Part shown: piece by piece, positions 12,402-62,086 of the stretch
Layout of the letters: every line of letters begins with the position of its first letter
Numbering within the stretch: the stretch's first letter is position 1
Assembly (NCBI GenBank): GCA_965649205.1
Contig: CBFGJV010000007.1
Location: 17,466 to 81,465 of the forward strand
Source: a candidate division WOR-3 bacterium
GTDB taxonomy: Bacteria > Hydrothermota > Tepidihabitantia > Tepidihabitantales > Tepidihabitantaceae
DNA: 64,000 nucleotides
Direction: 5' to 3'
Made by a program: the position numbers and the translations under genes
Notes under the pieces: model-generated
What the model saw: the letters and a program-made list of their open reading frames with translations, nothing else
What the model was told of the DNA's origin: nothing
The model's database searches: none

Positions 12402-12917
12402 TTACCTCCGGTATTCTGCAAAACCCATTTCTTGATTGACTTGTCTTCGCATGTCAGCCCACTGCAGGTGTTGACACTTAAGCAGCACGGAAGCGCGGTT
12501 CAGACTTCCTCGGGCAGTCAGCCCTAGTCCTTGCTTGTGGCCTACGAGCTGAAGAAATTTTCTGGCCTGGTCGAAGAAGAGCGTATTTTCTATCTCTTGT
12601 GACAACAGGTTGGCGGACAGTTTCATAGGCGATCGGGGGTCGTCCCGGTCCGTAGTCAGCAGGTTGAGCAGAATTTGCTCCAGCCATGCCCGAGGAGTGA
12701 GCTGGTCTACTAAGTCGGGCAACGAAGGAGGGGGCAGGTTGTTTTCGAATCTCACCATAAGAGAAAACAGGGAGTCAAAGCTATTCTGACGCCCTTCGGG
12801 AAACACAATGGTCAGTTTGACAACCGGTTCTGGCATGGTAACATATCTGTCCGCGTAAAAGAAAAGTAAACGGTCTGACCTTGAGCTACACTGGAGGGTC
12901 AGGTAGATGACTAGCAA
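12402..12917 (-). CDS. Hypothetical protein, possibly a disrupted longer gene together with the 81-aa ORF at 12085-12330
   Basis: 171-aa ORF with no motif I can recognise. A second same-strand ORF follows about 70 nt downstream in a different frame. Confidence 0.3.
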   Translation of the reverse strand: MLVIYLTLQCSSRSDRLLFFYADRYVTMPEPVVKLTIVFPEGRQNSFDSLFSLMVRFENNLPPPSLPDLVDQLTPRAWLEQILLNLLTTDRDDPRSPMKLSANLLSQEIENTLFFDQARKFLQLVGHKQGLGLTARGSLNRASVLLKCQHLQWADMRRQVNQEMGFAEYRR

Positions 12918-16051: not shown

Positions 16052-16696
16052 CTAGTCGAGTTTCTTGTGGCAGAACCACCAGTCGTAGCATTCGTACTGG
16101 TTTGGCCGTTCGGCTGCAGTTTTCTCATCCCGGGCTGGCGGGATAATGACACGGTCGCCTACCAGTTCGTTGTGGGGCCAGTTTGCCGGCATTGCCACCT
16201 TGTTGGCGTCGGATACCTGTAGCGCTTTCACTATCCGCAGCAATTCGTCCATATTCCGGCCCAGTTCCTGCGGATAATAGAGAATGGTGCGCACGACGCC
16301 AGCCGGGTCCACCAGGAACACCGCCCGTACTGTGCTCGTGCCCTTGCCTGGATGAATCAGTCCCAGGCGCATCGCCACCTTGCCCACATCGTCTGAGATT
16401 ATGGGGAACTTGATTTCGACGCCAAGCTTCTCCTTTGTCCACTGCACCCATTTGATATGAGAGAATACCTGGTCGATGCTCAGACCGATGAGTTCACAAC
16501 CGAGTTTCTGAAACTCGTCCCAGCGCTTCTGGAATGCTACGAACTCAGTCGTGCATACCGGCGTAAAGTCGGCGGGGTGGCTGAATAGAATAAACCACTT
16601 GCCCTTGTAATCTTGGGGCAGGTTCTTAGGTCCGTGCGTGGTGTGCACGGTGATGTCAGGGAACTTATTCCCGATGAGCGGCATTACGTTATCCAT
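16052..16696 (-). CDS. Peroxiredoxin (1-Cys Prx / Prx6-like)
   Basis: FTPVCTTE peroxidatic-Cys motif; 214 aa. ATG with AAGGAGG upstream on the minus strand. Confidence 0.85.
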
Positions 16697-16879: not shown

Positions 16880-19118
16880 TCAGTCTAGCTTAAGCAGGCT
16901 GATAGTGGTCTGGCGACGGTGGGCTTGCAGTCGGCAAAAGTAGACGCCGGGCGGAGCAATTGCTCCTGTATTGGTTCTGCCGTCCCAGACGATACCGCCG
17001 GTTTTTGTCTCTTCCCCGCTGAGTATAAATCTGCGCATCAGAGAACCGGATGCGTCAAAGATGGAAAGTTCGGCACTCTGGCTGGAACCAGGAAGCAGGC
17101 GCAGGAAAACTGAACTGCGAAAAGGGTTCGTCTTTGCCTCCAGAAACAGATAGGGGTAGGGGGAGGCGTTGTGTTCTTCTATACCTGCGCCCGGGAAGAC
17201 CGTAACGAACTTGGACATGGCGTTATTGGCCAGATTTACGTCGTCTGCTATCTGCAGAGTACAGCAAGCAAGGTGCGTTCCTGACGTGCGGGTCTTCCAA
17301 TAGGGGAAGGTCAGTGTGGTCTCGCTTCCCGGTTCTATATTCTTCTGCCCGCTGCGAAAGTAATTGTCGCCAGGTATGCGGAAGATGCCGCGCACCTGTT
17401 CGGTTGTCGTACCGTAGTTTTTCAGCCGTATGCGGGGGAAGATGGTCGCGCCTGTGTCTACAGTATCCGGCGGCACCTCGATAGCTGTGATAGCGATATC
17501 TCTAACTCGTACCAGCACGGAGTCGTCGTTGTAGTCGTTTTCCGGGTACTGGTCCGTGGCTAGCGCGGTTGAACAGCGGGAGCGGAACAGGCCGCGGGTG
17601 GGTGCAGTCCAAGTGCGGAAGGAGACTCTTACCGTGTCACGGGGGGCGAGATTTGTCACCTGTTGGGTGTCGCAATAGGTGGAGCCGATGCGCACTATGA
17701 CCGGGAAGGAAACAGGTGAATGGCTGAAGTTGCCCACGAGTGCCTGGGGCACAGCGGTCTGACTGGAGTCGTATATTCCGACTGGTGTTGGTCCGTCCAG
17801 GAGGGCAACGTCAGGATTATAGGGACGCACACTGGCAAGAGCATATACCATCTGCCAAGTGTCAGGTATGGCCAGTGGCGTTTCCCGCGAGGGAATAATA
17901 TTGCCCCAGGGGAGAAATTGAGCAGAGTAGTAAGTCACTTCTCCAAATTTGCCGTCCGGCAGGTCGTCGTAGCAGGAGATAAAGACAGAATCGGTAGTGC
18001 CGTCGCGGATGTAGTCGGAACCGTCAGTTAGGTCGAAAACAATCCTGTGGGAAGGAAACGGATGGTCCACGCTGGCCTGGCGCCAGCCACGGAAGTCACG
18101 GAACCATAAAGGGGTCTCGCGCGGACCAACCATAAACGAGATACCCAGGCGGTCGCGAGCCGGATGATTGATGCGTACCCGGGCGTACATCTGGGGGACG
18201 AAACCGACTGTATCCTCCAACCACCCTACCTGCAGCATGGAAAGAAATGCGTCCATGACCGCCGTATACGACATCCAGAAGTAGCCGGCCTGTCCCCAGC
18301 CAGTTCCCCAGGAGTCTACACAGCGAAATGCTCCCTTTCCGTCGCGGGTAGTCAAGGTGTCGTCGTATCCTACTATGGTTATTAGGTGGCCGCCGCGATT
18401 GGAGCCAGTACGGTCAGCAGAACAATACGTGTAGTTATGCAGGTGGATTTTATCAAAGTTGTCCCACACCCATATGGCGAGGCAGGAAGTAGAAGCCGTT
18501 GTTCAGCAGCTGCTTGATAATGGCTATGCCGGAGGAATCTCGGGTGTAGGCCCAATGCCAATCCTTACAGCGAAAAGGAATCGCATTGTAAAACGCCTGT
18601 TCAGTGGGCCAAGTCACCGGGTCACGGTCGTTGTAAGGGCAGTCAGCCAGGCTGGCCGCACCCTGCTCACAAATGAGGCCGAAATTGTTGGAAAAACCGG
18701 AGCCCCGGTCGGCGCCGCCATTTACCTGATTGTAGGTAAACGCCGGGCTGAACTGGTGGCGAGGGTTGGTCAGATCCCAGCGTCGTTCAGCATACTCAAG
18801 CTGGGTGCGGTGATAGTAGGTGGTTGCCCAAGAAGCGCAGGAACCCTGGCCGCCCTGGTTTCCCACGGGCGGCATCTGGTCTGACAGGTCAACTCTGATT
18901 ACATTCTTGTAACATTGGGCTCCTGGCGCTGCCGCGACGAACTTTACCTCGCGAGCCGGTGCCGTTCTGCTTAGGTCTTCGTAGTTAAAACCAAGTGGAT
19001 GTAATTCTGCGTAGGCTAAATCCGCAAAAAGAAAAGCAAGACAGGCAAGGCAGAAGATAGGATATAGTTTCCGGGGCAATTTTTCTCCTTTGTTTTTGGC
19101 TAGGGATGTCCGATGCAT
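16880..19118 (-). pseudogene. Secreted papain-like (C1 family) cysteine peptidase with a T9SS-type C-terminal sorting domain, split by a frameshift near 18455-18480
   Basis: The N-terminal ORF (18453-19118) has a signal peptide and a Cys box (QGGQGSCASWATTYY). The downstream ORF (16880-18469) carries the His region (GGHLITIVGYDD) and ends with a Por_Secre_tail-like domain (LSIFDASGSLMRRF...GVYFCRLQA...SLLKLD). A single-nucleotide frame change near CCTGCCTCGCC joins them. Confidence 0.6.
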
Positions 19119-22776: not shown

Positions 22777-22885
22777 GCCCTAGGTTCTGTTTCCGACTTG
22801 ACCGGGCGGGTTGTTTGTTCAGCCCGTTGACAGGACTGTGATTGTGGGTCAGAATGACACTAACACAAATGAGGTACCAAGCAGA

Positions 22886-23542
22886 ATGAAAACGGCAAGG
22901 CATAGCTTCTTGTTGTCAGGCAGAAATTCGAGGGCTTTCGTAATCAGTTGCGATGCAAGAACCAGCACAGCAGACTGCGTATGGTGTCTGCTTTTTGTCA
23001 TCTTGGTGCTGCTGGGGACGGGATGTCCTGAGTCCAGGACAGGGTTGGATTCAGGTGTCCGTCCCAGTCAGATAGTAGAAGAATTTGTGCTGCACGAGAG
23101 TGCGAGCGGGGAGAGACTGTACACACTTAGAGCCGAGACCGCGTATGTATATGATGCGGAGCAGCGCGTCGACGTGGTGGCTCCATGTGTATTTTTCTAT
23201 GAGGCGGGCAGAACGATACACGCACTTCTAACCGCAGACCGGGGCGTGGTGTATTCTCAGACAGAAGACCTGGTAGCGCATGGTAAAGTGCTCGTTGTCA
23301 CTGAGGATAGTACCAAGCTGTGGACCGATTCTCTATTGTGGAATAACAGAACCAAACTGATAACGACCGATGCCCCGGTAGAAATCCAGACGCCGAAGGG
23401 GCGCATTGTAGGAGTGGGACTGGTGGCTGATGCCGGGTTGACGAAAATTGAAATTCTAAGTGCGGTTCAAGGTAGCTCCAGCTATAAGTTTGAGGTAGGC
23501 GCCGAAAGTAGTCCCGGTGCAGAAAATGCAGGCGAGCGTTGA
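22886..23542 (+). CDS. lptC: LptC-like LPS export periplasmic protein
   Basis: N-terminal membrane anchor and an LptC-like core (LWTDSLLWNNRTKLITTDAPVEIQTPKGRIVGVGL). Sits at the head of an lptA-lptB-rpoN array. Start approximate; the ORF track starts at 22811. Confidence 0.5.
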   Translation: MKTARHSFLLSGRNSRAFVISCDARTSTADCVWCLLFVILVLLGTGCPESRTGLDSGVRPSQIVEEFVLHESASGERLYTLRAETAYVYDAEQRVDVVAPCVFFYEAGRTIHALLTADRGVVYSQTEDLVAHGKVLVVTEDSTKLWTDSLLWNNRTKLITTDAPVEIQTPKGRIVGVGLVADAGLTKIEILSAVQGSSSYKFEVGAESSPGAENAGER

Positions 23543-23547
23543 CCGGT

Positions 23548-24558
23548 ATGCAGAATGAGATTGTTGCTGCTGCAGGAGGGTTTTCGGTGTCAGTCCTCCT
23601 GCAGGTAGGCTTTATCAGAGCGAACTTCAGTATTCCCAAAGCCTGCTTCTTTTTTGTTTTGGGACTGGGGTTGTGTTTGTTCGGATTGGCAGCGGCGGCA
23701 GATTTGTATGCGAAGAAGATGGAGATTGTGCGTACCGCGGAAGGACAGGTTACTTACTTCCAGGATAGTGTGCGTATCAGCGATGGTAGAACTCTTATCA
23801 CCGCCGGTTGGGCCCGGGTGAACGAATCACGGGGTTTGGCGGTGATTGGGGAGTCGGTTGTAATTGAGAATCCAGATGTATTGATAACTGCTGACTCGTG
23901 CGTGTATCACATGGATACGCGGCGAACGGAATTGACCGGTAGAGTGAGAGTAGAACAGGATTCGCTTGTCATCCTTGCGCCCGCGCTTGAGTATGTTCTG
24001 GACGGCAGGACAGTTTCTGCCGGAGCGGGGTTGGTAGTGCAGGTCAAGGAGGGAAAGACAGTGATTACTGGCGAGCGAGGCAGTTATGACCTTGCCAAGG
24101 GATTGGGCATCGTGGACCAAAGGCCAAGAATGATTCAGAAACAGGAGACTGACTCGGTGGTGGTAACGGCAGAACGAATGTCCTGGCTGGCCGGGGAATC
24201 ACGCGCAGGAGCATACGGGAATGTGCGGGTGATGGCAGGAGGAGCAGAGATGAGTTGTGAATCTCTGGAATATGTGACAAGTCAGGATTCGGGATTTGCC
24301 TGGGGTTCGCCGGTGCTTACAGACAGCGTAAGCAGGACCACTGGTGATACGGTCGGGATATTAGTGCGGGAGGGTAACTTATACCAGGTGACTATCGCAG
24401 GAAATGCTACGAGTCGGTATCGTACGCAGAGCGGAGAGTTAATAGAGGTGTCGGGGAGAATCATATTGGTGCGGTTGGATGCGGGAAAGATTGACACGAT
24501 TGATGTTGTGGATTTGGATTATGGTCGTGTGATCAGACAGCCGGAAAGTGGTACCTGA
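23548..24558 (+). CDS. lptA: LptA/OstA-like periplasmic protein (tandem OstA-like domains)
   Basis: Signal peptide followed by repeated OstA-like beta-jellyroll segments. Located between the lptC-like gene and lptB. Confidence 0.5.
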   Translation: MQNEIVAAAGGFSVSVLLQVGFIRANFSIPKACFFFVLGLGLCLFGLAAAADLYAKKMEIVRTAEGQVTYFQDSVRISDGRTLITAGWARVNESRGLAVIGESVVIENPDVLITADSCVYHMDTRRTELTGRVRVEQDSLVILAPALEYVLDGRTVSAGAGLVVQVKEGKTVITGERGSYDLAKGLGIVDQRPRMIQKQETDSVVVTAERMSWLAGESRAGAYGNVRVMAGGAEMSCESLEYVTSQDSGFAWGSPVLTDSVSRTTGDTVGILVREGNLYQVTIAGNATSRYRTQSGELIEVSGRIILVRLDAGKIDTIDVVDLDYGRVIRQPESGT

Positions 24559-25372
24559 AATGGGAAACGACTCTCAAGGCAGCGATGCTCGGCAGGTAAG
24601 TGCGGGTAAAGGAACGCAGCCCTTGCCTCCGTCTCGGCCCGGGGAAAACGGTAAGCGGCTACGGGCAGAGGGTCTGGTAAAAACCTACGGAGGCAGAAAG
24701 GTGGTGAACGAGGTTAGCCTGGAGCTATCTCAAGGAGAAGTGGTAGGTCTATTGGGCCCCAACGGTGCGGGAAAGACTACTACATTTCATATGATTACAG
24801 GCTTTGTCCGACCCGATCAGGGGCGAATCTGGTTAGATGGCACTGATATGACGGGAATGCCGGTGTATCGGCGTGCGCGGTTGGGACTGGGGTATTTGTC
24901 CCAGGAGCCCTCTATTTTTCGCAAGCTTTCCGTGCTGGACAATGTGAGGGCAATTCTGGAAATGGTGGGCTATGAGCGAGCAAGGATTGACGAGCGGGCA
25001 AGGGAGTTATTGGCCCGTTTTAATGTGTTGCACCTGGAGAAACAGCAGGGTGCCACTCTTTCTGGAGGAGAAAGGCGGCGGGCAGAGCTGGCTCGGGCTT
25101 TGGCTAGCGCACCTCACTTTTTGCTGCTTGATGAGCCATTCACAGGGGTTGACCCCATAGTGCGGGCGGAAATTCAGGACATAGTGCGTGGGTTGAAAGA
25201 AGACGGACTGGGAATTCTCATTACCGATCATAATGTGCGCGAGACGCTGGAGATAACTGATCGAGCTTACATTATGTACGATGCGCAGGTGCTGCTTTCT
25301 GGTACCTCGCATGACCTGGTGAACGACCCGAAGGCAAGACAGGTTTATCTGGGAGAAAGGTTCCGAATATGA
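24548..25372 (+). CDS. lptB: LPS export ABC transporter ATP-binding protein LptB
   Basis: Walker A (GPNGAGKTT), ABC signature (LSGGERRR), Walker B (LLLDEPF); 274 aa directly upstream of rpoN. Confidence 0.85.
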   Translation: MVPEMGNDSQGSDARQVSAGKGTQPLPPSRPGENGKRLRAEGLVKTYGGRKVVNEVSLELSQGEVVGLLGPNGAGKTTTFHMITGFVRPDQGRIWLDGTDMTGMPVYRRARLGLGYLSQEPSIFRKLSVLDNVRAILEMVGYERARIDERARELLARFNVLHLEKQQGATLSGGERRRAELARALASAPHFLLLDEPFTGVDPIVRAEIQDIVRGLKEDGLGILITDHNVRETLEITDRAYIMYDAQVLLSGTSHDLVNDPKARQVYLGERFRI

Positions 25373-26865
25373 AACAAGAGCTGGGAATGGGGTTGGACCA
25401 GAGGCAAGTACTGGGTCAGTACCTAACGCCGCAGCTGGTTCTTAATTTGAAGTTGCTGCAGATGCCGACACTGGAGTTGGAAGCGGTGATTAGGCAGGAG
25501 TTGGAGGAAAATCCGGCGTTGGAAGAAGCAGATGACGAGGATACAGAAGTTACGGCATGGGAAAGAGAAGAGGAGCCGGTTTTGCAGGTGGCAACCGATA
25601 CGACAGAGGAATCTGAACAATCGCTACTGCCGGGAGCAAACGAGGGGTCTCTGGAGCTGCGACCCGGTGAAGTAGACACTCCGGAAGAGCTGCCAGCTGA
25701 TGCCTATTCATTGGAAGACCTGATGCCTGATGACGGCGATTTGCCGAGTTTGCCAAGTTCTGCAGGAGGAGAGAATGCTGCTGAGGTCTGGGAGGTGGTG
25801 TCCGAGCCGGAGCCGGACCTGCGTGAGGCGTTGCTGCCGGTACTGCAGACTTTGTTGTCTGCAGATGATGCAGCGGTTGCAGAGAATATTTTTGACTACC
25901 TGAACGAGGACGGATTCTTAACAGTAGAAGAGGGGGAACTGGCACAGATTCTGCAGGTTGACCCTGCCCGCCTGCAGCGAATACTACAGATAATACGGCA
26001 GATTGAACCGGGCGGAATCGGTTGCCGCAATCTGCAACACGCATTTCAGGTGCAGTTGGAGCTTTTGGGTTTTGAGCCGACCAGCTTGGAAAACCAGTTA
26101 GTGACTGCGTACTGGGAATTGCTTTTGGCAAAGAAGATAGACAGAATTGTCCAGTGCTCGGGCGCAAGCGAGGAGCAGGTAAGAAAAGCGCTGGCAAAGA
26201 TACTGACTCTGGAGACGAGACCGGCCAGAAGGTTTTCCGCGGTGCGGACTGAGTATGTAATGCCTGATTTCAGCGTGGAATTACGTGAAGGCCGGCCGGT
26301 GGTGGAGGCAAACGACAGTTCCCTACCTCGGCTGAAACTGTCTCGGCAATACGCGGAGATACTGCGTAATCCCAAAGCCTTTTCCAAAGAACAGGTTCAG
26401 TTTGCCCGCGAAAAGTTCAACCGCGCGCTCATGTTCCTGCGGGGAATAGAGTCACGGCGGCGTACGCTCAGGCGACTTATGGAACTCGTGGTCGAGGAAC
26501 AAAGGGACTTCTTTCTGAAAGGACCGGAGTACCTGAAACCGGCTACATTGAAAGAGGCGGCTGAACGACTGCAGGTGCACCCTTCTACTGTTTCCCGGGC
26601 CACTGCGGGTAAATATGTGGAGACCTGCTATGGCATTTTCCCGCTTAAGCATTTTTTCCGGGCCGGGACAGGCGACAGATCGCGTATGAGTATCAGGGAG
26701 CGCATAAGGCAGATGGTGGACAATGAGGATAAATCTGCTCCCCTGAGTGACGACGATATGGTTGCATTGCTGCAAAAGGAAGGTATCAAGGTGGCGCGGC
26801 GGACCGTGGCTAAGTATAGACAGGAACTGGGTATTCCGGGAAGAAATCAAAGGTTGAGAGTTTGA
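25369..26865 (+). CDS. rpoN: RNA polymerase sigma-54 factor
   Basis: N-terminal Gln/Leu-rich region, acidic linker, HTH (LQVHPSTVSRA) and RpoN box (ARRTVAKYR). Confidence 0.9.
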   Translation: MKQELGMGLDQRQVLGQYLTPQLVLNLKLLQMPTLELEAVIRQELEENPALEEADDEDTEVTAWEREEEPVLQVATDTTEESEQSLLPGANEGSLELRPGEVDTPEELPADAYSLEDLMPDDGDLPSLPSSAGGENAAEVWEVVSEPEPDLREALLPVLQTLLSADDAAVAENIFDYLNEDGFLTVEEGELAQILQVDPARLQRILQIIRQIEPGGIGCRNLQHAFQVQLELLGFEPTSLENQLVTAYWELLLAKKIDRIVQCSGASEEQVRKALAKILTLETRPARRFSAVRTEYVMPDFSVELREGRPVVEANDSSLPRLKLSRQYAEILRNPKAFSKEQVQFAREKFNRALMFLRGIESRRRTLRRLMELVVEEQRDFFLKGPEYLKPATLKEAAERLQVHPSTVSRATAGKYVETCYGIFPLKHFFRAGTGDRSRMSIRERIRQMVDNEDKSAPLSDDDMVALLQKEGIKVARRTVAKYRQELGIPGRNQRLRV

Positions 26866-26884
26866 TCAGAGAAGGGCAGGAGCG

Positions 26885-28786
26885 GTGCACGTAGTAGTCG
26901 GTACTGCGGGCCACATTGACCACGGGAAGAGCGCCTTGGTACGGGCGCTTACTGGTACTGACCCGGACCGTCTCAAGGAAGAGAAAGAAAGGGGGATGAC
27001 CACAGATTTGGGTTTTGCTTTCCTGGGAGACAACATAACCATTATAGATGTGCCCGGGCACGAGAAATTCGTCCGTCATATGCTGGCTGGTGCTAGCACC
27101 ATTGACCTTGTGTTGCTGGTGGTGGCTGCGGATGACGGAGTAATGCCTCAGACCAGAGAACATTTTGAGATATGCAAGCTTATGGGAATACGCAAGGGAT
27201 TGGTGGTAATAAACAAGGCAGACCTGGTGGATGCAGAAATGCTGGAGCTGGTAAGGCAAGAAATAGCTGCGCTGGCGCAGGGGTCGTTTCTGGAGGGTGC
27301 GCCTGTTTTGGTGGTTTCAGCTCTCACTGGTCAGGGAGTGCCAGAACTCAGGGAGGCTATAGTAGAGATGGCCGGCAGGGTAGAACCCAAGCCGGACAGA
27401 GGTGTTTTCCGTATGCCGATAGACCGCTGTTTTTCTTTGCGGGGTTTTGGTACAGTGGTGGCGGGTACAATTCTTTCTGGTCAAGTACGGGTGGGAGAGC
27501 GACTGGAACTTCTTCCTGCTCAGATGGAAGTGCGGGTGCGGGGAATACAGAAACACAACCGGCCAGCAGATTCTGCCGGTCTGGGAGAAAGAGCAGCGCT
27601 GAACCTGCAGGGCGTGGAGCGGGAGACTGTGACGCGGGGCTGGGTTCTAGCCACCCCAGGCTATTACCAGCCTATGACCAGGTTCAATGCCTGGCTGTAT
27701 CTATTGAGACAGGACACACGACCTCTGCGGAATCTTACGAGGTTGAAGCTGCATATCGGTACGGCAGAAAAGATGTGCCGGATTGTGCTTTTGGACAAGA
27801 AGGAACTTCTGCCCGGGCAGGAAGCGTACGTGCAATGCCGGGTAGAAGAACCGGTGGTATGTGACTGGAATGACCATTTTGTCATCCGTACGTTTGCGCC
27901 TCAGCAGACGATAGGCGGCGGGGTAGTTCTAGAGACGAATTCGGATAAGGAAAAAAGGTTTGACGATGCGGTCATTCAGCGACTCCGGGCGTTGCGTTCA
28001 GGAGAAGCGGGTAGTGTGCTGGAACAGTATCTGATAAAAGCGGGACCAGAACCCAAAACTATGTTTCAGGCATGCCGGGACCTGGCCCTGGCTGAGGTGG
28101 AGGCGACAAAGATGCTGGAGGTGCTGGTGCGAACCGGCAGGGTGCGTCGGTTTCAGTGGGAAGCAAAGGAATGGTTAATACATGAACAGTCTTTTGCCCA
28201 GGCAGTGGCTGCAATTGAGTCTTTTCTGGCGGATTTTCACCGGCAGAATCCTTTTCGCCTGGGATTGAGGCGGCCCGAGTTGCGGGTAAAGGCGGGGTTG
28301 CCGATTGCGCTTTATGAGGCGGCACTGGCACATTTGGTGAGCACAGGCCGCATCGCGGTTGAGGCAGAGCGAATAAGGTTTGCAGAACACAGGCTGCAAC
28401 TGAGTCCAATCGAGCAGAAACACTTTGATCGACTGAGCAATACTTTTCGAGAGGCGGGTCTGCAGGCACCTTCTCTGGCAGAAGAACTGGCGATGCTGGA
28501 GAAGAGAGTGGCAGAAAGAGTGCGGGCTGCGTTGCTGGAAACAGGCACTCTTGTAGACTTGGGTGAGTCGGTGGTGCTGCATCGCGACACAATACGGGCG
28601 GCAGAGGACAAAATACGGCGTCTGTTTTCCCGCAAGCCGGAGCTGACTGCTTCGGAAATCAGGCAGGAGCTGGGCACGACTCGCAAATATCTGATTCCTC
28701 TGCTGAACTACTTTGACTCCCGGGGTATAACGCAAAGAAAAGGCGAGGTAAGGATTTTAAAGCAGAAAGGAACTACTGACCTGTGA
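26885..28786 (+). CDS. selB: Selenocysteine-specific translation elongation factor SelB
   Basis: GTP-binding N-terminus ([19 protein letters not shown]; DVPGHEKF; NKADL) plus a long C-terminal winged-helix extension; 633 aa. Confidence 0.85.
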
Positions 28787-28861
28787 CTTGTCTGCAGTTA
28801 CAAGGATCGAGTCTATTACTGGCGCCAAAGAACCGGCGGCAAATAACCGATAAGGAGTCTA

Positions 28862-29902
28862 ATGGGTAGGAAAGGAATACTGGCCACGGTAAGTTGTGCA
28901 GGTTGAGCGTCCAAGCTTAGTAAGGCGCAGTTGGCGCTCGTACTTGACAAACTGAGAAGACACGAGGACCCCAGACTGCTTGTGGGTATTAATACTGCGG
29001 ACGACGCCGGGGTTTTCTTGTTGCGACCTGATCTGGCATTGGTGCAGACTGTGGATTTGCTCACGCCTATGGTGGAGGACCCCTATGTCTTTGGCCGGAT
29101 TGCGGCTACTAATTCTCTTTCAGACGTTTATGCCATGGCCGGCACGCCGGTGACAGTTTTGAACATAGCCGGTTTTCCGGCGCCCGCGGACAAATCCTGG
29201 CTTGCCGCTATATTGCAAGGCGGTGAGGACGCAGTGGCTGAGGCTGGGGCGGTGGTATGTGGCGGTCATACTTTCAACGAAAAGGAAATAAAGTTTGGGC
29301 TGGCCGTGACCGGTACCATTGATCCGGGGCGGATTGTAACTAATGCCGGCGCCAAGCCCGGAGACGTTCTGGTTCTGACCAAGCCTTTGGGAACAGGGAT
29401 ATTTGCACAAGTGATGATGAACGAAGATAAGGTTGATGAACGACTTTATCAGGCGGCAGTTCAATCGATGATGACCTTAAATCGGGCAGGGTCAGAGGCT
29501 ATGGTTCAACTGGGGGCGAATGCAGCAACGGATATTACCGGTTTTGGTTTGCTTGGACACGCCCAGGAGATGGCTCAGGCCAGTAGAGTGAGTATAAGGC
29601 TGGAGTTCAGCAGGATTCCCCTTCTGCCTGGGGTACGGGAGCTGGCGCGGGCCGGTATAGTGGATGCGGGGGTGGCTATGAATATGTCCAGTTTCGAGCA
29701 GTATGTGCACTGGGCCGAGTCCATTGTTGAATCTGACCGCAATTTGCTTTGGGAGTCAGAAAGTTCCGGTGGTCTTCTAGTGAGCCTTCCTCAGGAAAGT
29801 GCAGAACGGTATCTGGAAGCGGTGGGTGAGAGGGGGGTACAGGCAGCGGTAATCGGCGAAGTGCGGACAGGACCGCCTGGCGAAGTGGAAGTAAGGAGTT
29901 AG
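28862..29902 (+). CDS. selD: Selenide, water dikinase (selenophosphate synthetase) with an in-frame TGA at 28904-28906 read as selenocysteine
   Basis: ATG at 28862 (AAGGAG upstream) gives MGRKGILATVSCAG-U-ASKLSKAQLALVLDKL in frame with ORF 28931-29902. This aligns with E. coli SelD HGAGCGCKISPKVLETIL, the TGA replacing the catalytic Cys17. The rest is a typical SelD/AIR-synthase-related fold. Confidence 0.85.
28920..28943 (+). promoter_or_regulatory. Candidate SECIS hairpin 13 nt downstream of the selD UGA
   Basis: GUA-A-GGCGC-[AGUUG]-GCGCU-CG-UAC stem-loop. The apical loop contains GU, and spacing from the UGA is similar to bacterial SECIS elements. Confidence 0.4.
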
Positions 29903-29904
29903 TT

Positions 29905-30759
29905 ATGTTCTGGCAGGCGCTAAAGACACAGTTTTTCAGTCCGGAGAAACTCGTTGATTATGCAGTCAGGGCCATTCAGATAGTTCTGGTCTTGGTAGGA
30001 GCCTGGTTGGTTTATCTGGTGGTTAGTAGAATTCTGCGTCGGGCGCTAAGTCGGGCACAATTGCACGAGCGACGGGCAAGAACGCTTCTGTCTCTTATTC
30101 AGAGTCTGCTTGGTTACGGTATTCTATTTGTGGCTATCGTACTGGTATTGCGCATTCTGGGAGTAGATTATACGGCGATCCTGGCCGGAGCGGGTGTGGT
30201 GGGTCTGGCGGTAGGTTTTGGCGCGCAGACGCTGGTGCGAGATTTTATATCAGGCTTTTTTCTTCTTTTTGAAGATTTGATTAGCGTAGGGGACTTTGTC
30301 ACGGTAGGCGACATTTCCGGCACGGTGGAAAGAGTGGGATTAAGGATAACTCAACTGCGGGGTTTTGACGGTACCCTGCATGTGGTGCCCAACGGAGAGT
30401 TGACCAAGTTTGGTAATGCTAATCGCGGTTTCTGCCGGGCTCTGGTAACGGTGGATATGGCATACGAGCAAGATACGCAGAAAGGGCTTTCTCTGGCCGC
30501 GGAGGCGGCAAGGCGGTGGTATGAGGCCAATAGAGAATTGGCTCTGGAACCGCCAGAGGTTCAGGGCATAGTGGCTTTTGGCGAATCGGGTGTGAGAATC
30601 CGGGTGGTGGCGAAAGTGCAACCTATGCAGCACTGGCAGGCCGAACGTTCCTTGCGTCTGGTTCTAAAGGAAGCCTTTGATGCCGCGGGGATTGAGATAC
30701 CTTTTCCGCGACGGGTGGTGTATGCCAGACAGGAAAAGTCTGGTACTACCCACGGTTGA
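29905..30759 (+). CDS. Mechanosensitive ion channel, MscS family
   Basis: Three N-terminal TM helices and an MscS beta domain (DFISGFFLLFEDLISVGDFV...GTVERVGLRITQLR). Confidence 0.8.
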   Translation: MFWQALKTQFFSPEKLVDYAVRAIQIVLVLVGAWLVYLVVSRILRRALSRAQLHERRARTLLSLIQSLLGYGILFVAIVLVLRILGVDYTAILAGAGVVGLAVGFGAQTLVRDFISGFFLLFEDLISVGDFVTVGDISGTVERVGLRITQLRGFDGTLHVVPNGELTKFGNANRGFCRALVTVDMAYEQDTQKGLSLAAEAARRWYEANRELALEPPEVQGIVAFGESGVRIRVVAKVQPMQHWQAERSLRLVLKEAFDAAGIEIPFPRRVVYARQEKSGTTHG

Positions 30760-31242: not shown

Positions 31243-31971
31243 CTAAGTCGCCTGATCTCTGGGGCCGAAAATTGCGGTGCCTATGCGAATGATGGTGGCT
31301 CCCTCCTCGATGCCCTGTACGAAATCAGACGACATTCCCATAGACAGATGCGGAAGGGGAATCGAAAAACGTTGCCGCAGTGTTTCTGCTAGCTGGCGCA
31401 GGAGTCGAAAGCAGGGCCGGGAAGCTTCCGGGTCTTCTACCGCCCAGCCCGGGCCGATGGTCATCAGGCCTACCAGATGCAGTTTGTCTAACTGTAAAAC
31501 AGTTTCAACGAGCTCATTGAGCTTTTCTGGAGCAACACCAAACTTTGTTGGCTCTTTGGAAGTATTGACCTCGATAAGCACGTCCATAGTAGTGGCCATC
31601 TGTTCACACCGTTTCTGCACTACAACGGCAAGGTGCGGAGAATCAATGCTTTGTAAGACGGAAAATAGTTCCAGAGCCTTCTTGACTTTGTTGGTCTGGA
31701 GATGTCCAACAAGATGCCAGGTGGCCGGAAGGGTCACTAACGGCTTTTTGGCCGCTGCTTCTTGCACGCGGTTCTCTCCAATGTTGGTGATGCCGGCTCG
31801 AATCGCAGCGGTGATTTCCTCGGGGGTGCGGGTCTTGGAAACGGCTACCAGGGTAATTTCCTGTCGCTGTCTTCCTGAGCGGTGGCAGGCGGCGCAAATC
31901 TTCTCTTCTAGTCTCTTTACGTTTTCGGCAATACTCACGCCAGAGTATAAAGCGGGAACTAACCTAATCAA
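31243..31971 (-). CDS. yggS: YggS-family pyridoxal phosphate homeostasis protein
   Basis: Alanine-racemase-N-like fold with the PLP lysine region ([14 protein letters not shown]) and a YggS-like C-terminus ([25 protein letters not shown]). Confidence 0.8.
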
Positions 31972-32645
31972 GATTCGGCTGGCGTGACCTTACACGTGAA
32001 AGAAAGTGTGGCTTGTTTCAGGCGTACTCAGGAAAAGGGACTGCGATTAGGGCAAAGGTGCGGGGAATAACAGGCAATATACCGAACGAGGTGACTATTC
32101 AGGTGAAGGGAGAGGTGGTAGAGGTTGGCGGTTTGCAGACTGGAACCAGAACTTAAGAGGAGCAGGGAGCGGTACCGGTGGCAGCATTAGCTAGCCGAGC
32201 AGAAAGGAGGGCTATTGAGAAAGCACAGGAGGAAGTCGGGCGGAGGGTAACAGACAGAATGATATAAGAAGTCGAGGGGGGAGCCGCCTGGGGAACGGCT
32301 CGGGGGCAGCCCCCCGGCTGGGGATACCTGCAAAGCGGTTATTATCTAACTAAGTGTAAAAATGGGAGTTAGTCAGTTGTTATCGCGAGGGTGGGTACTT
32401 TGAGTTTCATGGTCATGATCGTTCATCAGTATGCTCAACTTGAGTAAAGGGGTATGGCCTGCAGTTTTGTCGGGGAATCAGGCCGGTAGGATAAGTAGGA
32501 TAAGTCCTAGCAAAGCTGATTCGGGAAGAAATAACAGGCGGGGTTGCCGGTGGGACGGTAAGGCTGGGCCTGTATTTTGGTTGCTTGACAGAACGGACTA
32601 GACGGCTATCTTGGGCAGCAGATGCATACAGAATCGCACCGGCCA

Positions 32646-33594: not shown

Positions 33595-34647
33595 GTGAAT
33601 AGAAAAGCAGCTGTGTTATTGCTGGTTGGGGCGATATTGTGTGGTGTAGGAGGATGTGCTAAGAAGATGTTGCCTCCCAGTCCGGACAGGTTTACCCCGA
33701 ATCTGGAGGAAATAGTTACCCGCAATCGGGTCCGGCTGGAATTGAGGTTTGACGAGGATTTGGATCCAACACGGATTTCTGCCGACAGCTTTACTATTCA
33801 AGGACCAGAAGGCAGATCTTTGACGGTAAGAGTAGCCACGGCCGGTCGCAGGACCGGAACGGTGGAACTGTGGACAGAGCCTCAGGAGCCGGTTCTGTAT
33901 CGCATCACAGGGACGGTAGCGGATAGAGCAGGCAATATCCGCAGGTTCAATAGCCGTTTTCGAGGGTCGGCAAGAATGGATACGATTGCTCCCCGGGTGT
34001 TGAAGATTACTCCGGAGCCGGGCAGTGCAGGCAGGCGCAGACCTATTGTGAGGATAGATTTCAATGAACCGGTGGATACCGCCCCGGGTCTTTCTTTCTT
34101 GTTCGTGCCCGCAGCCGCAGATAGTTTTTTCCATACTCGCTGGGAACCTGATGGGCAGACGGTGATATGGCAGTTGGGGGAAAGAGGAGAGGGCGGGAAA
34201 GATTCGACTTTAGGAGGGAGGGATTCTGTTGCTGATGTGCGCGCGATACTTTCCGGCGTTATCTATTTTGCGCTTCTGCCCGGGGTAACTGATTTGGAGG
34301 GTAACCGCAGCGAAGAACCAGTTTTTACTTATTTTACGGCTGATTCGGCGTTATCGGCTCTGCCGGTGAGGGGGCGGGTAGTGTCTTCTACAAGTTGGCA
34401 GGTTGCTTTGGTGTTTTTTTATTCTCCGATCAGTCCCGGTTTGGCAGTGGTGCGAGCAGACGGCTCTTTCTCGACTGTTTTGGCGGCCGGGAAGTATAGA
34501 GTGTGGGCTGCGGCGGATGAAAATGGAGATAATCAGGCAGAGCTGGTCAGCCCGACAACAGAGTTTGCTACCGAGCAGGAAAGTCTTAATCTCCATCTGC
34601 AATATTCCGAAACGCGTAAACCGCTTGCTGCCTACAGGCAGCCGTAA
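33595..34647 (+). CDS. Lipoprotein with bacterial Ig-like (SbsA/Big_5-type) domains
   Basis: Signal peptide with a lipobox-like LCGVGGC, followed by two Ig-like segments. Confidence 0.45.
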   Translation: MNRKAAVLLLVGAILCGVGGCAKKMLPPSPDRFTPNLEEIVTRNRVRLELRFDEDLDPTRISADSFTIQGPEGRSLTVRVATAGRRTGTVELWTEPQEPVLYRITGTVADRAGNIRRFNSRFRGSARMDTIAPRVLKITPEPGSAGRRRPIVRIDFNEPVDTAPGLSFLFVPAAADSFFHTRWEPDGQTVIWQLGERGEGGKDSTLGGRDSVADVRAILSGVIYFALLPGVTDLEGNRSEEPVFTYFTADSALSALPVRGRVVSSTSWQVALVFFYSPISPGLAVVRADGSFSTVLAAGKYRVWAAADENGDNQAELVSPTTEFATEQESLNLHLQYSETRKPLAAYRQP

Positions 34648-34660
34648 GTGGGTTGTGTCT

Positions 34661-36637
34661 ATGGATATCATTTTGACCGGATTACTGCTGCTGCTGGCGG
34701 TGGCGATGTACTTCCGCAACCTGCGCGAGGCGGGTTGGCTGCTGGTGCTGCGGTTATTGGTAGTGCTGCTTCTGGCGGCAATACTTTTAAATCGTACTCT
34801 CAGCTTTCATTGGCGGGTAAAACCGGGAAAGGTGGCGGTGCTGATTGACCGTTCTCTGAGTATGGTGCACGGCCGGGCTGATATACTGGCAGTCGCCGCG
34901 GCCCGACGTTTTCCGGTGCCGGCCGGACTGGCAACCGAGTGGTGGGAGTTTGCTGACGGTGTCTGGAGGACGAGGTCTTTGCGTGCCGAGCCGGTGGCTA
35001 CAGGTGATACGGCAGGCAATCGCCGTACGCGGCTGGGGCCGGCGCTGGCAACGATCATCAGGACTAGACCCGCAGCCGTGGTGGTAGTGAGTGACGGCCA
35101 AGATAATGGCGAGCTGAGCCCGGTGCAGGTGGCAAGGAACAGTGGTGTTCCCATCTATACCGTGGGGTGCGGGGTCACGGGGTTACGTAATGTAGAGGTG
35201 ACGGGGCTGCAGGTACCGCCGGTGGTCTATGCGGGCGATACCTTCACCGTTACCGGCCGGATACGTTATTCTGGTTTTCGTTCTGAGCCGGCAACAGCCC
35301 GGGTTGGACAGAAGGTTATAGCTCTTACTTTGGGCGAAGAGACAGCAGAGCAGGAGTGCAGTTTCACTCTGACCGCGGAGGGTATCGGCTACCAACTGGT
35401 GCGGTTCCAAGTGGACACTCTTCCGGACGAATTTGCTTATGCTGATAACTACGCAGAGACAGGGGTAGAAGTACTACCAGGTCGTATCCGGCTGGCGTAT
35501 GTTACCAACCGGCCTAGCCCGCAGACGCGGTTTGTGACTGATGTCATCAGACGGGAACCCAGGATGGAGTTGGCGCAGGTAGTAACACAGCCAACTGGAA
35601 GTTCCAGTGTTGCTGAGGCTGATGTTTATGTGCTAGACAACGTGAACGAGCCAGACTGGTCGACAGCCCAGAGGGACTTGCAATATCTGGTACACAAAGT
35701 GGAAAACGGCGCTGGGGCGTTGATTTTGGCCGGACCTGACTTTTTTCCTGTCCAACTGTTGCGAGAGTTGCTGCCCAGTGGTGCAGGTGTGAATAGAAAA
35801 CAGGGTAGCTTTCTTCCGCAGCTAGCCGAGGCGGGCAGGGTGTATTCCTGGCTTGCTGGTATTCGCTTCGAACGGTTGCCGCCGTTTGGCGAATTATTTG
35901 AGCCGGTCATAAATGGTCAGACTGAAGTCTGGGTGACCACATCTGAAAATGTCTTGCCGGTGATTATGGCCTACCGGGTAGGCAAAGGAAGGGTGGTGTA
36001 CGTGGCCGGACATCCTTTGTGGCGATGGGGTTTTGGTGCAGATATCCAATCGAGGAATGAGAGTCAACTCAGTATGTTTATTGTTGGTGCGGTTCGTTAT
36101 CTGGCGGAAAGGGAAAGACAACTGTTTCGTATGGTAACTGACAAATCCACTTATCTGCGTGGAGAGCCAGTGCGGGTGACGCTACATGCCTTGACGCCTG
36201 ACGGCTCGGCCTGGGTTGGACTGGATGCAAATCTGTGGGTCGATTCTATCCGACAGCTGCCCATGCGGGAGAGGGCAGCTGGCGCATATGAAGCCAACGT
36301 GGCCGCACTAGTTCCTGGCTACCATACCTTACGGGCCGAAGTCTTTCTGGGTGATTCACTGGTGGGAACCGCTGCTGTTTCTTTTGCCGTGTCCGCACGC
36401 GAACTGGAATTGTCCCGGTTGGGTCTGGACCGGCAGATGCTTGTCGCATTAGCCGAAGCGAGTGGAGGTCAATATTTTAGATGGGATAGTCTGCCGCCTG
36501 AAGGCTTTGCACTGGCGCAGGCTTCCTACCGTCGCAGTCTGGCATTCGAGCCGAGAAGAAGTTTCTGGGTCTATGGGTTGGTGGCTGTCCTCCTGGGGGC
36601 CGAGCTGGTACTGCGGAGGAAGAGAGGTCTATTGTGA
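34661..36637 (+). CDS. BatA-like membrane protein: N-terminal double-transmembrane anchor plus a von Willebrand factor A domain and a large C-terminal extension
   Basis: ATG at 34661. Two TM helices then a MIDAS-like DRSLS motif (VAVLIDRSLSMV), SDGQDNG and TVGCG VWA motifs, and a C-terminal TM helix. The ORF-track start at 34403 overlaps the upstream gene. Confidence 0.55.
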   Translation: MDIILTGLLLLLAVAMYFRNLREAGWLLVLRLLVVLLLAAILLNRTLSFHWRVKPGKVAVLIDRSLSMVHGRADILAVAAARRFPVPAGLATEWWEFADGVWRTRSLRAEPVATGDTAGNRRTRLGPALATIIRTRPAAVVVVSDGQDNGELSPVQVARNSGVPIYTVGCGVTGLRNVEVTGLQVPPVVYAGDTFTVTGRIRYSGFRSEPATARVGQKVIALTLGEETAEQECSFTLTAEGIGYQLVRFQVDTLPDEFAYADNYAETGVEVLPGRIRLAYVTNRPSPQTRFVTDVIRREPRMELAQVVTQPTGSSSVAEADVYVLDNVNEPDWSTAQRDLQYLVHKVENGAGALILAGPDFFPVQLLRELLPSGAGVNRKQGSFLPQLAEAGRVYSWLAGIRFERLPPFGELFEPVINGQTEVWVTTSENVLPVIMAYRVGKGRVVYVAGHPLWRWGFGADIQSRNESQLSMFIVGAVRYLAERERQLFRMVTDKSTYLRGEPVRVTLHALTPDGSAWVGLDANLWVDSIRQLPMRERAAGAYEANVAALVPGYHTLRAEVFLGDSLVGTAAVSFAVSARELELSRLGLDRQMLVALAEASGGQYFRWDSLPPEGFALAQASYRRSLAFEPRRSFWVYGLVAVLLGAELVLRRKRGLL

Positions 36638-39392: not shown

Positions 39393-39489
39393 GGCGGGAT
39401 TCTAAGACAGGCTGAGATGCAGTCAAGGCAAATTGACTCCGACAGGTGGTAAGTGTATTATCATAGTAAACTAACTCATTCTGTTGGTG

Positions 39490-42400
39490 ATGTTCCGCAA
39501 CCTATTTAGCACCCTGCTCCTGCTGGCAAGCAGCCAGTTTGCAGGAGTAAGTGGCTTACCCGCGGGCAGGGTGGCTTTCGACACCAGCTACTATAACAAC
39601 TATGTGCGGACGATGCGTAAAATAGATTCTCTGGTTTCCTTGCGTCCCAGCATAGCTTCGCTTGAAACTATTGCTGTTACCGAAACCGGAGGGCGGGCGG
39701 TAGTGGCGGTGAAACTGGCTGGCACTGCAAGCTCCCAGGGAACGACGCCCGCGATTCTTTTTGATGGAGCCCACCACGGTTGCGAGGTGCTGACGAGTGA
39801 AGTGTGTTTGAAGCTTTTGGCCTATCTGATTGCGGGGTACGATTCTAGCCCTGTTTTGCGGCGTTACATTGACTCTTTGCGCATTTTCATAGTGCCGCTG
39901 GTGAACCCGGACGGCCACGAAGTGAACTTTGTTACTCCTGATACTCTCTGGCGTAAGAATACCAGGGACAATAACAGCAACGGTTACTGGGACCCCGAAG
40001 ACGGAGTGGATTTGAACCGCAACTATCCGTTTCTCTGGGACATCGGGGGCAGTCCGTTTCCAAGTGACCGCGAGTACAGGGGACCTTATCCTTTGAGCGA
40101 AGCAGAAACGCAAGGCATGGTTGCTTTGTGTGCGCGGGAGAAGTTTCTTACCAATATCTGTTATCATTCCAGCCTGGAGGCGGAGGGCTGGGAAAAAATA
40201 TACTATCCCTGGGACTGGGGCGGTGTTCGTTCGCCGGACTATGACATCATCCGCCCCATAGCTATAGCGCTGGCCTCCAGCATCCCTAATCTCGCCGGTA
40301 CGGGTACTTATTCGGCGGCGATAGGGAATGCCCTTTCCGGCGGGATGTACCGTAACTGGTCATACTACAATTACGGTGTTTTCTCCTACACCGTAGAGAC
40401 CGGTATTTACTACCCTTCTCCGGCTGCAGCCGAATCTATCTGCGCGAACAATATACTTGGTGCCCGCTATCTTCTGGGTCGGACTCTTGGTTCGGCTGTT
40501 TGGGGTCGGGTTACTGATTCGGTCGATGGTAAACCTCTGGCTGCTCAAGTACTGTTGCTGGAAGTGGATACTCTTTCTCCGCGGCCGATTCTGCCGCGGA
40601 CTTCTGACTCTGTTCAGGGCCGTTTCTTTCGGCTTGTCAACCCGGGCGCCTACACTTTTCGTGTTTCGCGGCCGGGATATGTAACCAAAACAGTGTCTGT
40701 AACTGTACAAGAAGGACAACGGTCGAATTTAGAGGTGAGGCTGGCTAAACCTTCGGTTACAGTGGTTAGTCCGAATGGAGGTGAAAGCTGGATGGGTGGT
40801 ACCACTCAGACTATTAGGTGGCGAAAAGCAGATGCCGGATTCGCTACCTATCGGATTGTGCTTTCACGCGACGGGGGGCTAACCTATGCCGACACTATTG
40901 CCCGTAACATACCTGCAAGCGAGACGACTTTTCGTTGGATTCTGTCTTGGGTAAATTCTGCCACCTGCAGAATAATGGTCCAGGCTTTGGATAGCACAGG
41001 TGCGTTTATCTGTCAAGATGTCAGTGATGGCAACTTTGTTATTCAGACTGCGGTAACAGTACTCGTTCCCAATGGTGGGGAGATTTTGGGTGGCGGTCTA
41101 CCTTATACCGTAAGATGGCGAGTGATAGGTACGGGTTTTGCATTCTTGCGAGTGTTGCTTTCCACCAACGGTGGAATGACGTACACAGATACGATTGGTC
41201 AGGTGAGCGTGCAGGAAAGTGTCATTGTGTGGACACCGGCCTGGATGAATGTGAATACATGTCGTATCAGGGTTCAGGCGTTGGACAGCAGTGGCGCGGT
41301 GGTGGTGCATGATGCCAGCGACGGTAACTTCGCGGTGCGGACAGCAGTGACTGTAATGTCCCCGAACGGGGGTGAGTTTTGGGCCACTGGTGGTTATCGG
41401 ACGGTAAGATGGACTCGAACAGGTGGTGGATTCAGTGGCTATAGACTTCTTCTTTCTATGGATGGCGGTTTTACCTTTAAAGACACCATCGCCCGGGATG
41501 TGAACCCGGCCGAGAGTAGTTTTGTCTGGGTGATACCAACCGCTAACTCCAGTACCTGCTGGCTTATGGTTCAGGCGTTGGACAGCGCAGGCGGCGTGGT
41601 ATGTCAGGACGCCAGTGATGGCAGCTTTACGATTGCCGGCGTGGTAACCGTGTCGGTGCCAAATGGGGGAGAAGTCTGGGCCGGGAACGGCTTCCAGAAC
41701 ATCTATTGGAAGAAAACGGGCGTCAGTTTCGAATATCACCGGCTACTGCTTTCGCGCAACGGGGGACTTACCTATTCCGACACTATCGCGGCATATGTGG
41801 CGGCCGCAGAAAGCTCATACAGATGGCAGGTGTTTCCCGTCAATACGGATAAGTGTCGGGTGTGCGTGCAGCTAGTTGATGCGTCTGGTCAGGTGGTGGC
41901 TGCGGACTGGAGCGATCTTGATTTTACAATTGATTCGGACCCGCCTCTGGGTTTCAATCTGGTTCGACCGGCCAACTCTGCCTGGGCTAGCGGCACTCCG
42001 ATTTTTATATGGAACAGCGCCAGGGACAATTTCGGTATTGGCTATTACCAATTGTTTGTAGATGGGATATTGCGTATGGACAGTATTGCCGATACTGTTT
42101 GTACGTTTCTGCCGCCGGCCCTCGGTGAAGGCCTAAGAACCTGGACGGTGAAGGCAGTAGACCGGGCTGGAAACGCACGGCAATCAACGCAGACTTTTTC
42201 AGTCCGTATAGATACCACCCCTCCAGGTCCTTTTCATCTGCTTGCTCCAGCCGAGAGTTCCTGGATCAGCCGGAGTCTGTCGGTCCTTTCTTGGCAAGCC
42301 TCGTATGATGTTGGTTGTGGGCTTGCCGGTTATCAGTTATGGATTGACGGAGTTCCTAACCGGACGGATCTGTCCGCAAGTCAGACTTCGTGCTTGCCCG

Positions 42401-60916: not shown

Positions 60917-62086
60917 TTGTCTGAGAGACAGAAATTGATGCGAAAAAGCAAGACCGGCCTGCAAGCGCAACTGGTTAGGTCACCTGCTTCAAGGCGTGGG
61001 GCTGCGGTGTCCGTGTCGGTGATAAAGGCTGATATCGGAGGTTATGTAGGGCATTCTGCTAGCCATCCGGAGATTCTGGGCAGGGCCCGGGAACTTTTGG
61101 AAAAAGCCAAAAGAAAAGGAGTGCTGATAGATTTTCACGTAACCAACTGCGGAGATGACCTCGATTTGATAATGACCCATACAAAGGGTAATGATAGTCC
61201 GGCTGTCCACAAGCTGGCGTGGGACGTATTTACTAGTTGTACCGCCTTGGCTGCGGAATTGAAGCTCTATGGTGCGGGGCAAGATATATTGGTCGATGCT
61301 TTCTCGGGAAATGTCAAGGGTATGGGCCCTGGGGTGGCCGAGATGACTTTTGTAGAGCGCAAGTCTGAGCCAATTGTTGTATTCTGTGGTGATAAATGTG
61401 CGCCGGGAGCGTGGAATTTACCGCTTTTTCGCATGTTTGCCGATCCTTTTTGTACGATTGGATTGGTGATAGATCCGACGATGCATGACGGTTTTCGTTT
61501 TGAAGTGCACGATGTTCATGGCGGTAAGGATATTTTGCTTGCTTGCCCTGAAGAGATGTACGACTTGCTGGTTCTGGTGGGTGCACCAGAGAACTACGTA
61601 ATCAAGAACGTATTTAGGAAAACCGGGGATATCGCAGCCACCAGTTCTACCCAGAAACTTGCCCTTATTGCAGGGCGGTACGTAGGCAAGGATGACCCGG
61701 TTATGATAGTGCGATGTCAAGCAGGCTTCCCTGCTGTAGGTGAAGTTCTGGAGCCTTTTGCTTTTCCGCATCTGGTTTCTGGTTGGATGCGAGGTTCTCA
61801 TTATGGGCCGCTTATGCCCGTGTCGCAGGAAGAAGCCACTCCTTCCAGGTTTGACGGGCCGCCGCGAGTAATAGCTTTGGGTTTTCAGCTAAATGATGGG
61901 AGATTGGTTGGACCGAGAGATATGTTTGCCGACCCGTCTTTCGATTCGGCTCGTAAGCAGGCCAACGAAGTTGCAGATTATCTGCGGAGGCATGGCCCAT
62001 TCGAACCACATCGACTTGGCTTGAGGGACATGGAATACACTACTTTGCCACAGGTACTGGAAAAGCTCATTGGTAAGCGAAAGTAG
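60917..62086 (+). CDS. fbp: Fructose-1,6-bisphosphate aldolase/phosphatase (class V FBPase)
   Basis: SVIKADIGGYVGHSASHPE matches the N-terminal signature of the bifunctional FBP aldolase/phosphatase family. Start is either TTG 60917 (GGGAGG upstream) or GTG 61007. Confidence 0.8.
   Translation: MSERQKLMRKSKTGLQAQLVRSPASRRGAAVSVSVIKADIGGYVGHSASHPEILGRARELLEKAKRKGVLIDFHVTNCGDDLDLIMTHTKGNDSPAVHKLAWDVFTSCTALAAELKLYGAGQDILVDAFSGNVKGMGPGVAEMTFVERKSEPIVVFCGDKCAPGAWNLPLFRMFADPFCTIGLVIDPTMHDGFRFEVHDVHGGKDILLACPEEMYDLLVLVGAPENYVIKNVFRKTGDIAATSSTQKLALIAGRYVGKDDPVMIVRCQAGFPAVGEVLEPFAFPHLVSGWMRGSHYGPLMPVSQEEATPSRFDGPPRVIALGFQLNDGRLVGPRDMFADPSFDSARKQANEVADYLRRHGPFEPHRLGLRDMEYTTLPQVLEKLIGKRK

Follow-up and report, generated by a model that had tools for sequence, protein, structure and literature searches.

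The window analysed here, a 64,000-nucleotide (64 kb) stretch of DNA from a candidate division WOR-3 bacterium (GenBank assembly GCA_965649205.1, contig CBFGJV010000007.1, positions 17,466 to 81,465 of the forward strand), carries selD, the gene for selenide, water dikinase (selenophosphate synthetase), directly downstream of selB, the gene for the selenocysteine (Sec)-specific elongation factor. The correct gene model of selD runs from 28862 to 29902 on the plus strand and places Sec at residue 15, one of its 346 codons being a predicted Sec codon, the UGA at 28904-28906 (+). Read directly from the sequence, the gene starts with an ATG at 28862-28864, ends with a TAG at 29900-29902 and has a Shine-Dalgarno motif, AAGGAG (28852-28857, +), 4 nt before the ATG. 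The TGA lies 14 codons past the ATG and is the only in-frame one; translation through it gives MGRKGILATVSCAG*ASKLSKAQLALVLDKL..., as the initial annotation of this region had quoted. A mechanical list of open reading frames (ORFs) begins selD at a TTG at 28931 (ORF 28931-29902). The initial annotation had pointed to this late start, to the upstream ATG with its AAGGAG and to the TGA as the sole interruption, and all of its coordinates proved exact. Because an in-frame TAA is found at 28844-28846, with no start codon between it and the ATG, the extended frame can start only at 28862. The GGAG core of the Shine-Dalgarno motif is retained in relatives at 95% and 82% identity (L081 and L082, described below), and the WOR-3 homologues have Met at the codon equivalent to this ATG.

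By sequence, the extended product is a full-length member of the SelD family, and its predicted function is the ATP-dependent synthesis of selenophosphate from selenide. For profile searches of the 346-residue product, Cys was put in place of the TGA. The NCBIfam profile for selD (TIGR00476) scored 348.8 bits (cut-off 125), with residues 10-313 aligned on profile positions 6-310 of 311, an alignment that begins upstream of the TGA. The Pfam domains AIRS (PF00586, 82.5 bits) and AIRS_C (PF02769, 84.1 bits) are both present, and the best-matching solved structures are those of SelD from Escherichia coli (3u0o, E = 1.3e-60, alignable over residues 12-340) and Aquifex aeolicus (2yye, E = 1.3e-57). 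In the 3u0o alignment, the TGA stands opposite Cys17 of the E. coli protein, within GAGCGCKISPKVLETIL (GAG-C-GCKISPKVLETIL), and in 2yye it is also opposite the equivalent Cys. Three residues past the TGA, a conserved Lys corresponds to Lys20 of E. coli SelD; the local motif reads A-G-[UGA]-A-S-K, compared with A-G-C-G-C-K in 3u0o and G-C-A-A-K in 2yye. The codons upstream of the mechanical start thus align with the N-terminus of SelD, and the UGA occupies the position of the catalytic Cys of the E. coli enzyme, both as originally proposed.

The selB gene (26885-28786, +) matches TIGR00475 over its full length (369.5 bits, cut-off 242.25), in agreement with its earlier identification immediately upstream of selD. 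Its stop codon is an ordinary TGA, located 75 nt ahead of selD, and its product contains the Pfam domains GTP_EFTU, Beta-barrel_SelB, SelB-wing_2 and SelB-wing_3. The gene order lptC-lptA-lptB-rpoN-selB-selD-mscS (22811-30759 in the window) is conserved through the WOR-3 clade (L001-L025, L081 and L082). In this clade, selB and selD adjoin the sigma-54 gene, rpoN, rather than selA or selC. An ARAGORN scan of related loci located a tRNA-Sec (anticodon UCA) directly downstream of a Sec-type selD in three loci of other phyla: an unclassified bacterial metagenome-assembled genome (MAG; L027, 3654-3748), a KSB1 MAG (L031, 1546-1640) and a Caldithrix MAG (L035, 4097-4193).

A scan for homologues in which each prokaryotic species was represented by a single genome yielded 80 related loci, 79 of which could be assessed at the N-terminus. 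The closest loci among these species representatives belong to MAGs that carry the label candidate division WOR-3, and their identity does not exceed 70%. Every one of the 27 WOR-3-clade loci with a readable N-terminus has TGA at the equivalent codon; over all 79 assessable loci, 53 have it, the remaining 26 having TGT or TGC. The TGA-bearing loci include Calditrichota, KSB1, Ignavibacteriales, Zixibacteria, Dehalococcoidia, Fusobacterium and some Bacillota; those with TGT or TGC are mostly Bacillota (of the Lachnospiraceae, Oscillospiraceae and Clostridium type), plus one Phycisphaerae MAG. The WOR-3 clade shares the peptide M-x-[KR]-x-GILATV[ST]C[APV]G-U-ASK[LI], with the start codon 14 codons before the TGA. 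Two closer relatives come from independent samples: L081 (Logan SRR32459165), at 95% protein identity, and L082 (GCA_039801365.1), at 82%. In both, the TGA is retained and neighbouring codons differ from the window at synonymous sites, which excludes a sequencing error, the explanation that the initial annotation had named as fatal to its proposal. Upstream of the TGA, the amino acids at residues 5-14 are conserved and third codon positions vary freely (entropy 0.9-1.95 bits in a codon alignment of 25 WOR-3-clade sequences), a pattern characteristic of translated sequence. TGA is also the commonest stop codon in the window, terminating 16 of its 35 long ORFs, selB included; UGA is therefore not reassigned genome-wide, and a code in which it specifies Trp or Gly was rejected.

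Downstream of the UGA, within the coding sequence of selD, lies a predicted bacterial selenocysteine insertion sequence (SECIS) hairpin at 28919-28944 (+), delineated from its fold, a clade consensus and constraint on synonymous sites. Folding of 28912-28947 gave -8.9 kcal/mol. The lower stem (28919-28922/28941-28944, +) is formed by the pairs A28919-U28944, G28920-C28943, U28921-A28942 and A28922-U28941. The upper stem (28924-28928/28934-28938, +) consists of a G28924.U28938 pair followed by GCGC at 28925-28928 paired with GCGC at 28934-28937, and it closes the apical loop AGUUG (28929-28933, +). A hairpin of this kind, GC-rich, with GU in its loop and beginning 13 nt past the UGA, had been noted before at 28920-28943. 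It is indeed present: 13 nt (28907-28919) separate the UGA from G28920, and the fold obtained here adds the pair A28919-U28944.

Comparative analysis identified the part of this hairpin that is conserved in the clade as the core GCGC/AGUUG/GCGC (28925-28937, +). An RNAalifold consensus of 33 WOR-3-type sequences recovers the core GCGC/GCGC stem plus outer pairs at 28920-28921/28940-28941. In the WOR-3 hairpin alignment, 95.5% of cells are paired, compared with 9-53% after displacement of the 3' partners by one to three columns. The strongest signal comes from synonymous sites. Across 78 conserved four-fold degenerate codon columns of the 25-sequence alignment, the mean third-position entropy is 1.47 bits, and only two columns have zero entropy: Ala22 and Ala25, which are GCG in 25 of 25 sequences and whose codons form the two arms of the hairpin stem. 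The chance that one given pair of columns would be exactly the two invariant ones is about 1 in 3003. Between them, Gln23 is CAG in all sequences and Leu24 is either UUG or UUA, which preserves the GUU of the loop. Where the peptide differs, the stem is kept by other means: in L029, which has SAQLV, it is preserved through an exchange of G-C for A-U. Fifteen Sec-type selD genes of other phyla, with different peptides (LTELG, PKFLA), have a hairpin of 6-7 pairs located 3 nt nearer the UGA; it shows 16 double-sided compensatory cells and a covariation score of 0.575, compared with 0.323 for shuffled controls, none of the 500 scoring as high. The comparative evidence is strong: the hairpin is under selection at the RNA level.

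The position and loop of the hairpin differ between lineages. The WOR-3 hairpin lies one codon (3 nt) farther from the UGA than those of Calditrichota, KSB1, Ignavibacteria and Zixibacteria (loci L027-L051), and its loop is AGUUG, compared with CGGAG or AGUUU in those phyla.

The published bSECISearch model of bacterial SECIS (bSECIS) elements describes an apical loop of 3-9 nt on an upper stem of at least 4 bp (PMC13188914, Fig. 2 legend), with a G within the first two loop positions that is usually followed by G or U, a distance of 16-37 nt from UGA to loop and a minimum free energy (MFE) of -7.5 kcal/mol or lower (PMC13188914). The selD hairpin falls within all four published constraints. 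Its loop is 5 nt long with G then U at positions 2-3; its upper stem, at 4 Watson-Crick pairs plus a G.U pair, is of the minimum permitted length; its loop lies 22 nt from the UGA; and its MFE of -8.9 kcal/mol is under the threshold. It is, however, matched by no curated Rfam model, and it folds no better than shuffled sequences, although a stability beyond chance is not among the defining features of the published model. A cmscan of the whole window against Rfam at gathering thresholds matched no SECIS or other relevant family. In the comparison with SECIS models that the initial annotation had proposed for this region, the hairpin thus agrees with the published bSECIS constraints and has no Rfam covariance-model match.

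Taken together, these observations suggest that selD encodes a Sec-containing selenophosphate synthetase whose UGA is decoded via a SECIS element and SelB, a reading to which we assign a probability of roughly 0.93. The earlier statement that this organism decodes UGA as Sec is supported, as far as selD is concerned, by the conserved TGA, the selected hairpin, the adjacent selB and the standard genetic code; selenium incorporation at this codon is a prediction from sequence. Translation would begin at the ATG at 28862 and proceed to the UGA at 28904-28906, where the hairpin 13 nt downstream would act as a bacterial SECIS. With its C-terminal winged-helix domains, SelB-GTP carrying Sec-tRNA(Sec) would bind the apex of the hairpin, and it would deliver the charged tRNA to the ribosomal A site. 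The outcome would be a Sec residue at the catalytic position, in the glycine-rich loop near the N-terminus (G-U-A-S-K here, G-C-G-C-K in E. coli), with the conserved Lys following three residues later. The Sec of SelD would itself require selenophosphate, the product of the enzyme, so that synthesis of SelD would depend on selenium and also on pre-existing SelD. The autoregulation of selenophosphate synthesis claimed in the initial annotation is thus a plausible consequence of a Sec-dependent SelD.

Several results weigh against the decoding of this UGA through a SECIS and SelB. Folded on its own, the hairpin shows no excess of stability over dinucleotide shuffles (z = -0.26 and -0.06), so its significance rests on the comparative evidence. 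That evidence includes little direct covariation inside the WOR-3 clade, because the core stem is almost invariant there; only three cells show double-sided changes, and they come from the most divergent sequences. The MFE fold of 28904-28950 is a different structure, at -14.6 kcal/mol (28905-28939), in which the GA of the UGA and the next three bases (GAGCG) pair with CGCUC at 28935-28939, which might for instance occlude the UGA. This UGA-pairing fold was set aside on the grounds that it is absent from the RNAalifold consensus of the clade. When the Rfam threshold was relaxed to E <= 10 for 28700-29100, the only match was a chance microRNA hit on the opposite strand, in a database not verified to hold a general bacterial SECIS model. 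There is no selA among the annotated ORFs of the window, ARAGORN detected no tRNA of any kind in it, and the same program, run on the 27 WOR-3-clade loci, located no tRNA-Sec at a distance of up to 3 kb from selD. With neither selA nor tRNA-Sec in the window, we infer the complete Sec machinery rather than observe it; from the established bacterial Sec pathway, selA and selC would be expected elsewhere in the genome.

The fold energy, the sparse covariation within the clade and the lack of an Rfam match would all suit a gene that is Sec-type but whose hairpin at 28919-28944 is a by-product of the peptide K-A-Q-L-A and not a functional SECIS. Such an origin leaves unexplained why both Ala codons are always GCG while other conserved four-fold codons vary, and why Leu24 is restricted to UUG or UUA and Gln23 to CAG; moreover, the hairpin survives through compensatory changes where the peptide is LTELG, PKFLA or SAQLV. 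We consider a by-product very unlikely. The absence of selA and tRNA-Sec from the window is, for its part, what would be seen if the UGA were read without Sec, either as Cys or Trp by near-cognate or suppressor decoding or under a reassigned code, with SelB uninvolved at selD. A precedent exists, as SECIS-independent UGA read-through has been documented for the selenophosphate synthetase (SPS) gene in insects (PMC4561486). Against this, the code is standard, with TGA terminating selB among many other ORFs; a full-length SelB with SECIS-binding winged-helix domains adjoins selD in an order conserved through the clade; the hairpin both fits the bSECIS model and shows selection at synonymous sites; and in related loci of other phyla a tRNA-Sec directly follows a Sec-type selD. 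Read-through without Sec is accordingly judged highly improbable.

A last alternative takes the TGA for a true stop codon, for an error of sequencing or for a lesion in a pseudogene; the functional product would then be a 323-residue protein starting at TTG 28931, without the N-terminal catalytic loop. ORF callers and all protein entries of the clade in the database searched do have this short form, and TGA is the stop codon most used in the window. The short form would, however, be devoid of the residues that match Cys17 and Lys20 of E. coli SelD, and its start would ignore the AAGGAG ribosome-binding site before ATG 28862. It is further contradicted by the retention of the TGA and the 14 codons upstream of it, with synonymous variation, in 27 WOR-3 loci and several other phyla, and by the presence of the same TGA in the independent samples L081 and L082. 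The probability of a stop, error or lesion is therefore considered negligible, and Sec insertion through a SECIS and SelB is the reading retained here.

A more specific and rather doubtful possibility concerns the rpoN-selB-selD-mscS block of WOR-3, in which the nucleotide-frozen SECIS, shifted by one codon, may reflect a lineage-specific co-evolution of SelB and SECIS, SelD perhaps being the anchor, or even the only selenoprotein, that maintains the Sec trait. If true, this would merely extend known patterns; SelD has been proposed to be able to maintain the Sec trait (PMC1794560).

The initial annotation had expected other TGA-interrupted selenoprotein genes elsewhere in the genome. A search of the 64 kb found no other credible gene of this kind. 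In two places, 19236-19952/19962-20708 and 52539-52946/52950-53519, neighbouring ORFs share a frame with a single TGA between them and mimic UGA-interrupted selenoprotein genes; they were rejected as the separate genes adk/map and rpsH/rplF, respectively. Short N-terminal extensions and CxxU-type motifs in the window were also discarded, their translations appearing non-coding. Sec-containing members are known among the peroxiredoxins, and the window encodes a peroxiredoxin of the AhpC/TSA family with a 1-Cys Prx C-terminal domain (16052-16696, -); this gene has no in-frame TGA.

Other features of the window are as follows. The ORF at 39484-45816 (+), of 2110 residues, probably encodes a surface protein, judging from its homologue in L081, which contains Peptidase_M14, CarboxypepD_reg and faint Ig-like domains. 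The ORF at 60917-62086 (+) matches FBPase_3 (PF01950) with 594 bits, the bifunctional fructose 1,6-bisphosphate aldolase/phosphatase type that is found mainly in archaea and in deep-branching or thermophilic bacteria. The ORFs at 31243-31971 (-) and 31277-31987 (+) overlap almost fully; the former has an Ala_racemase_N domain (YggS-like, binding pyridoxal phosphate), and the latter, which has no family match, is probably a shadow ORF. Four ORFs gave no Pfam match at E <= 1e-5: 34403-36637 (+, 744 residues), 18453-19118 (-, 221 residues), 11069-11878 (+, 269 residues) and 12402-12917 (-, 171 residues).

The arrangement described here is a textbook one, known from many bacteria, and the result is an annotation correction, not a discovery; our understanding of Sec biology is unchanged. 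Its value lies in the corrected gene model and in flagging a WOR-3-type lineage as a probable user of Sec. The 120 best database homologues of SelD, those of the WOR-3 clade included, are all 296-330 residues long, with a query coverage of no more than 95%, which is the expected signature of systematic truncation at the Sec codon, the gene callers having started these proteins past it. Because these entries are without the catalytic N-terminal loop, metabolic reconstructions and structure predictions that rely on them misrepresent the active site. Selenoproteome surveys of uncultured phyla can make use of the flagged lineage, and the case is a reminder that UGA recoding should be permitted when genes are called in these MAGs. 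A full-text literature search combining WOR-3 and selenocysteine returned nothing on the subject apparent from title or abstract.

Sec-containing SelD has long been established and ranks as one of the two bacterial selenoproteins with the widest distribution. The SelD of A. aeolicus (2yye/2zod) is natively of the Sec type. SelD selenoproteins have been listed for Geobacter, Desulfovibrio, Clostridium and Moorella, among others (PMC1794560). The WOR-3 protein resembles the known bacterial Sec-type SelD in its match to TIGR00476, in the UGA at the same catalytic position with a Lys three residues on and in the stem-loop within the coding sequence just past the UGA; it differs in that its host lineage is uncultured and that its best identity among species representatives is 70%. 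With the Cys-type SelD of E. coli (3u0o), it shares the motifs GAG-[C/U]-x-x-K, DDA, SD[IV][FY]AM[GA]G and TD[IV]TGFG. In E. coli, Cys17 is encoded by a UGY codon and recoding is not needed, whereas WOR-3 selD has a UGA followed by a predicted SECIS. In the E. coli fdhF system, the SECIS is a hairpin directly 3' of the UGA with GU in its apical loop, recognized by the C-terminal winged-helix domains of SelB. The WOR-3 selD locus appears to follow the same logic, with a different gene, a different hairpin sequence and a predicted binding of SelB.

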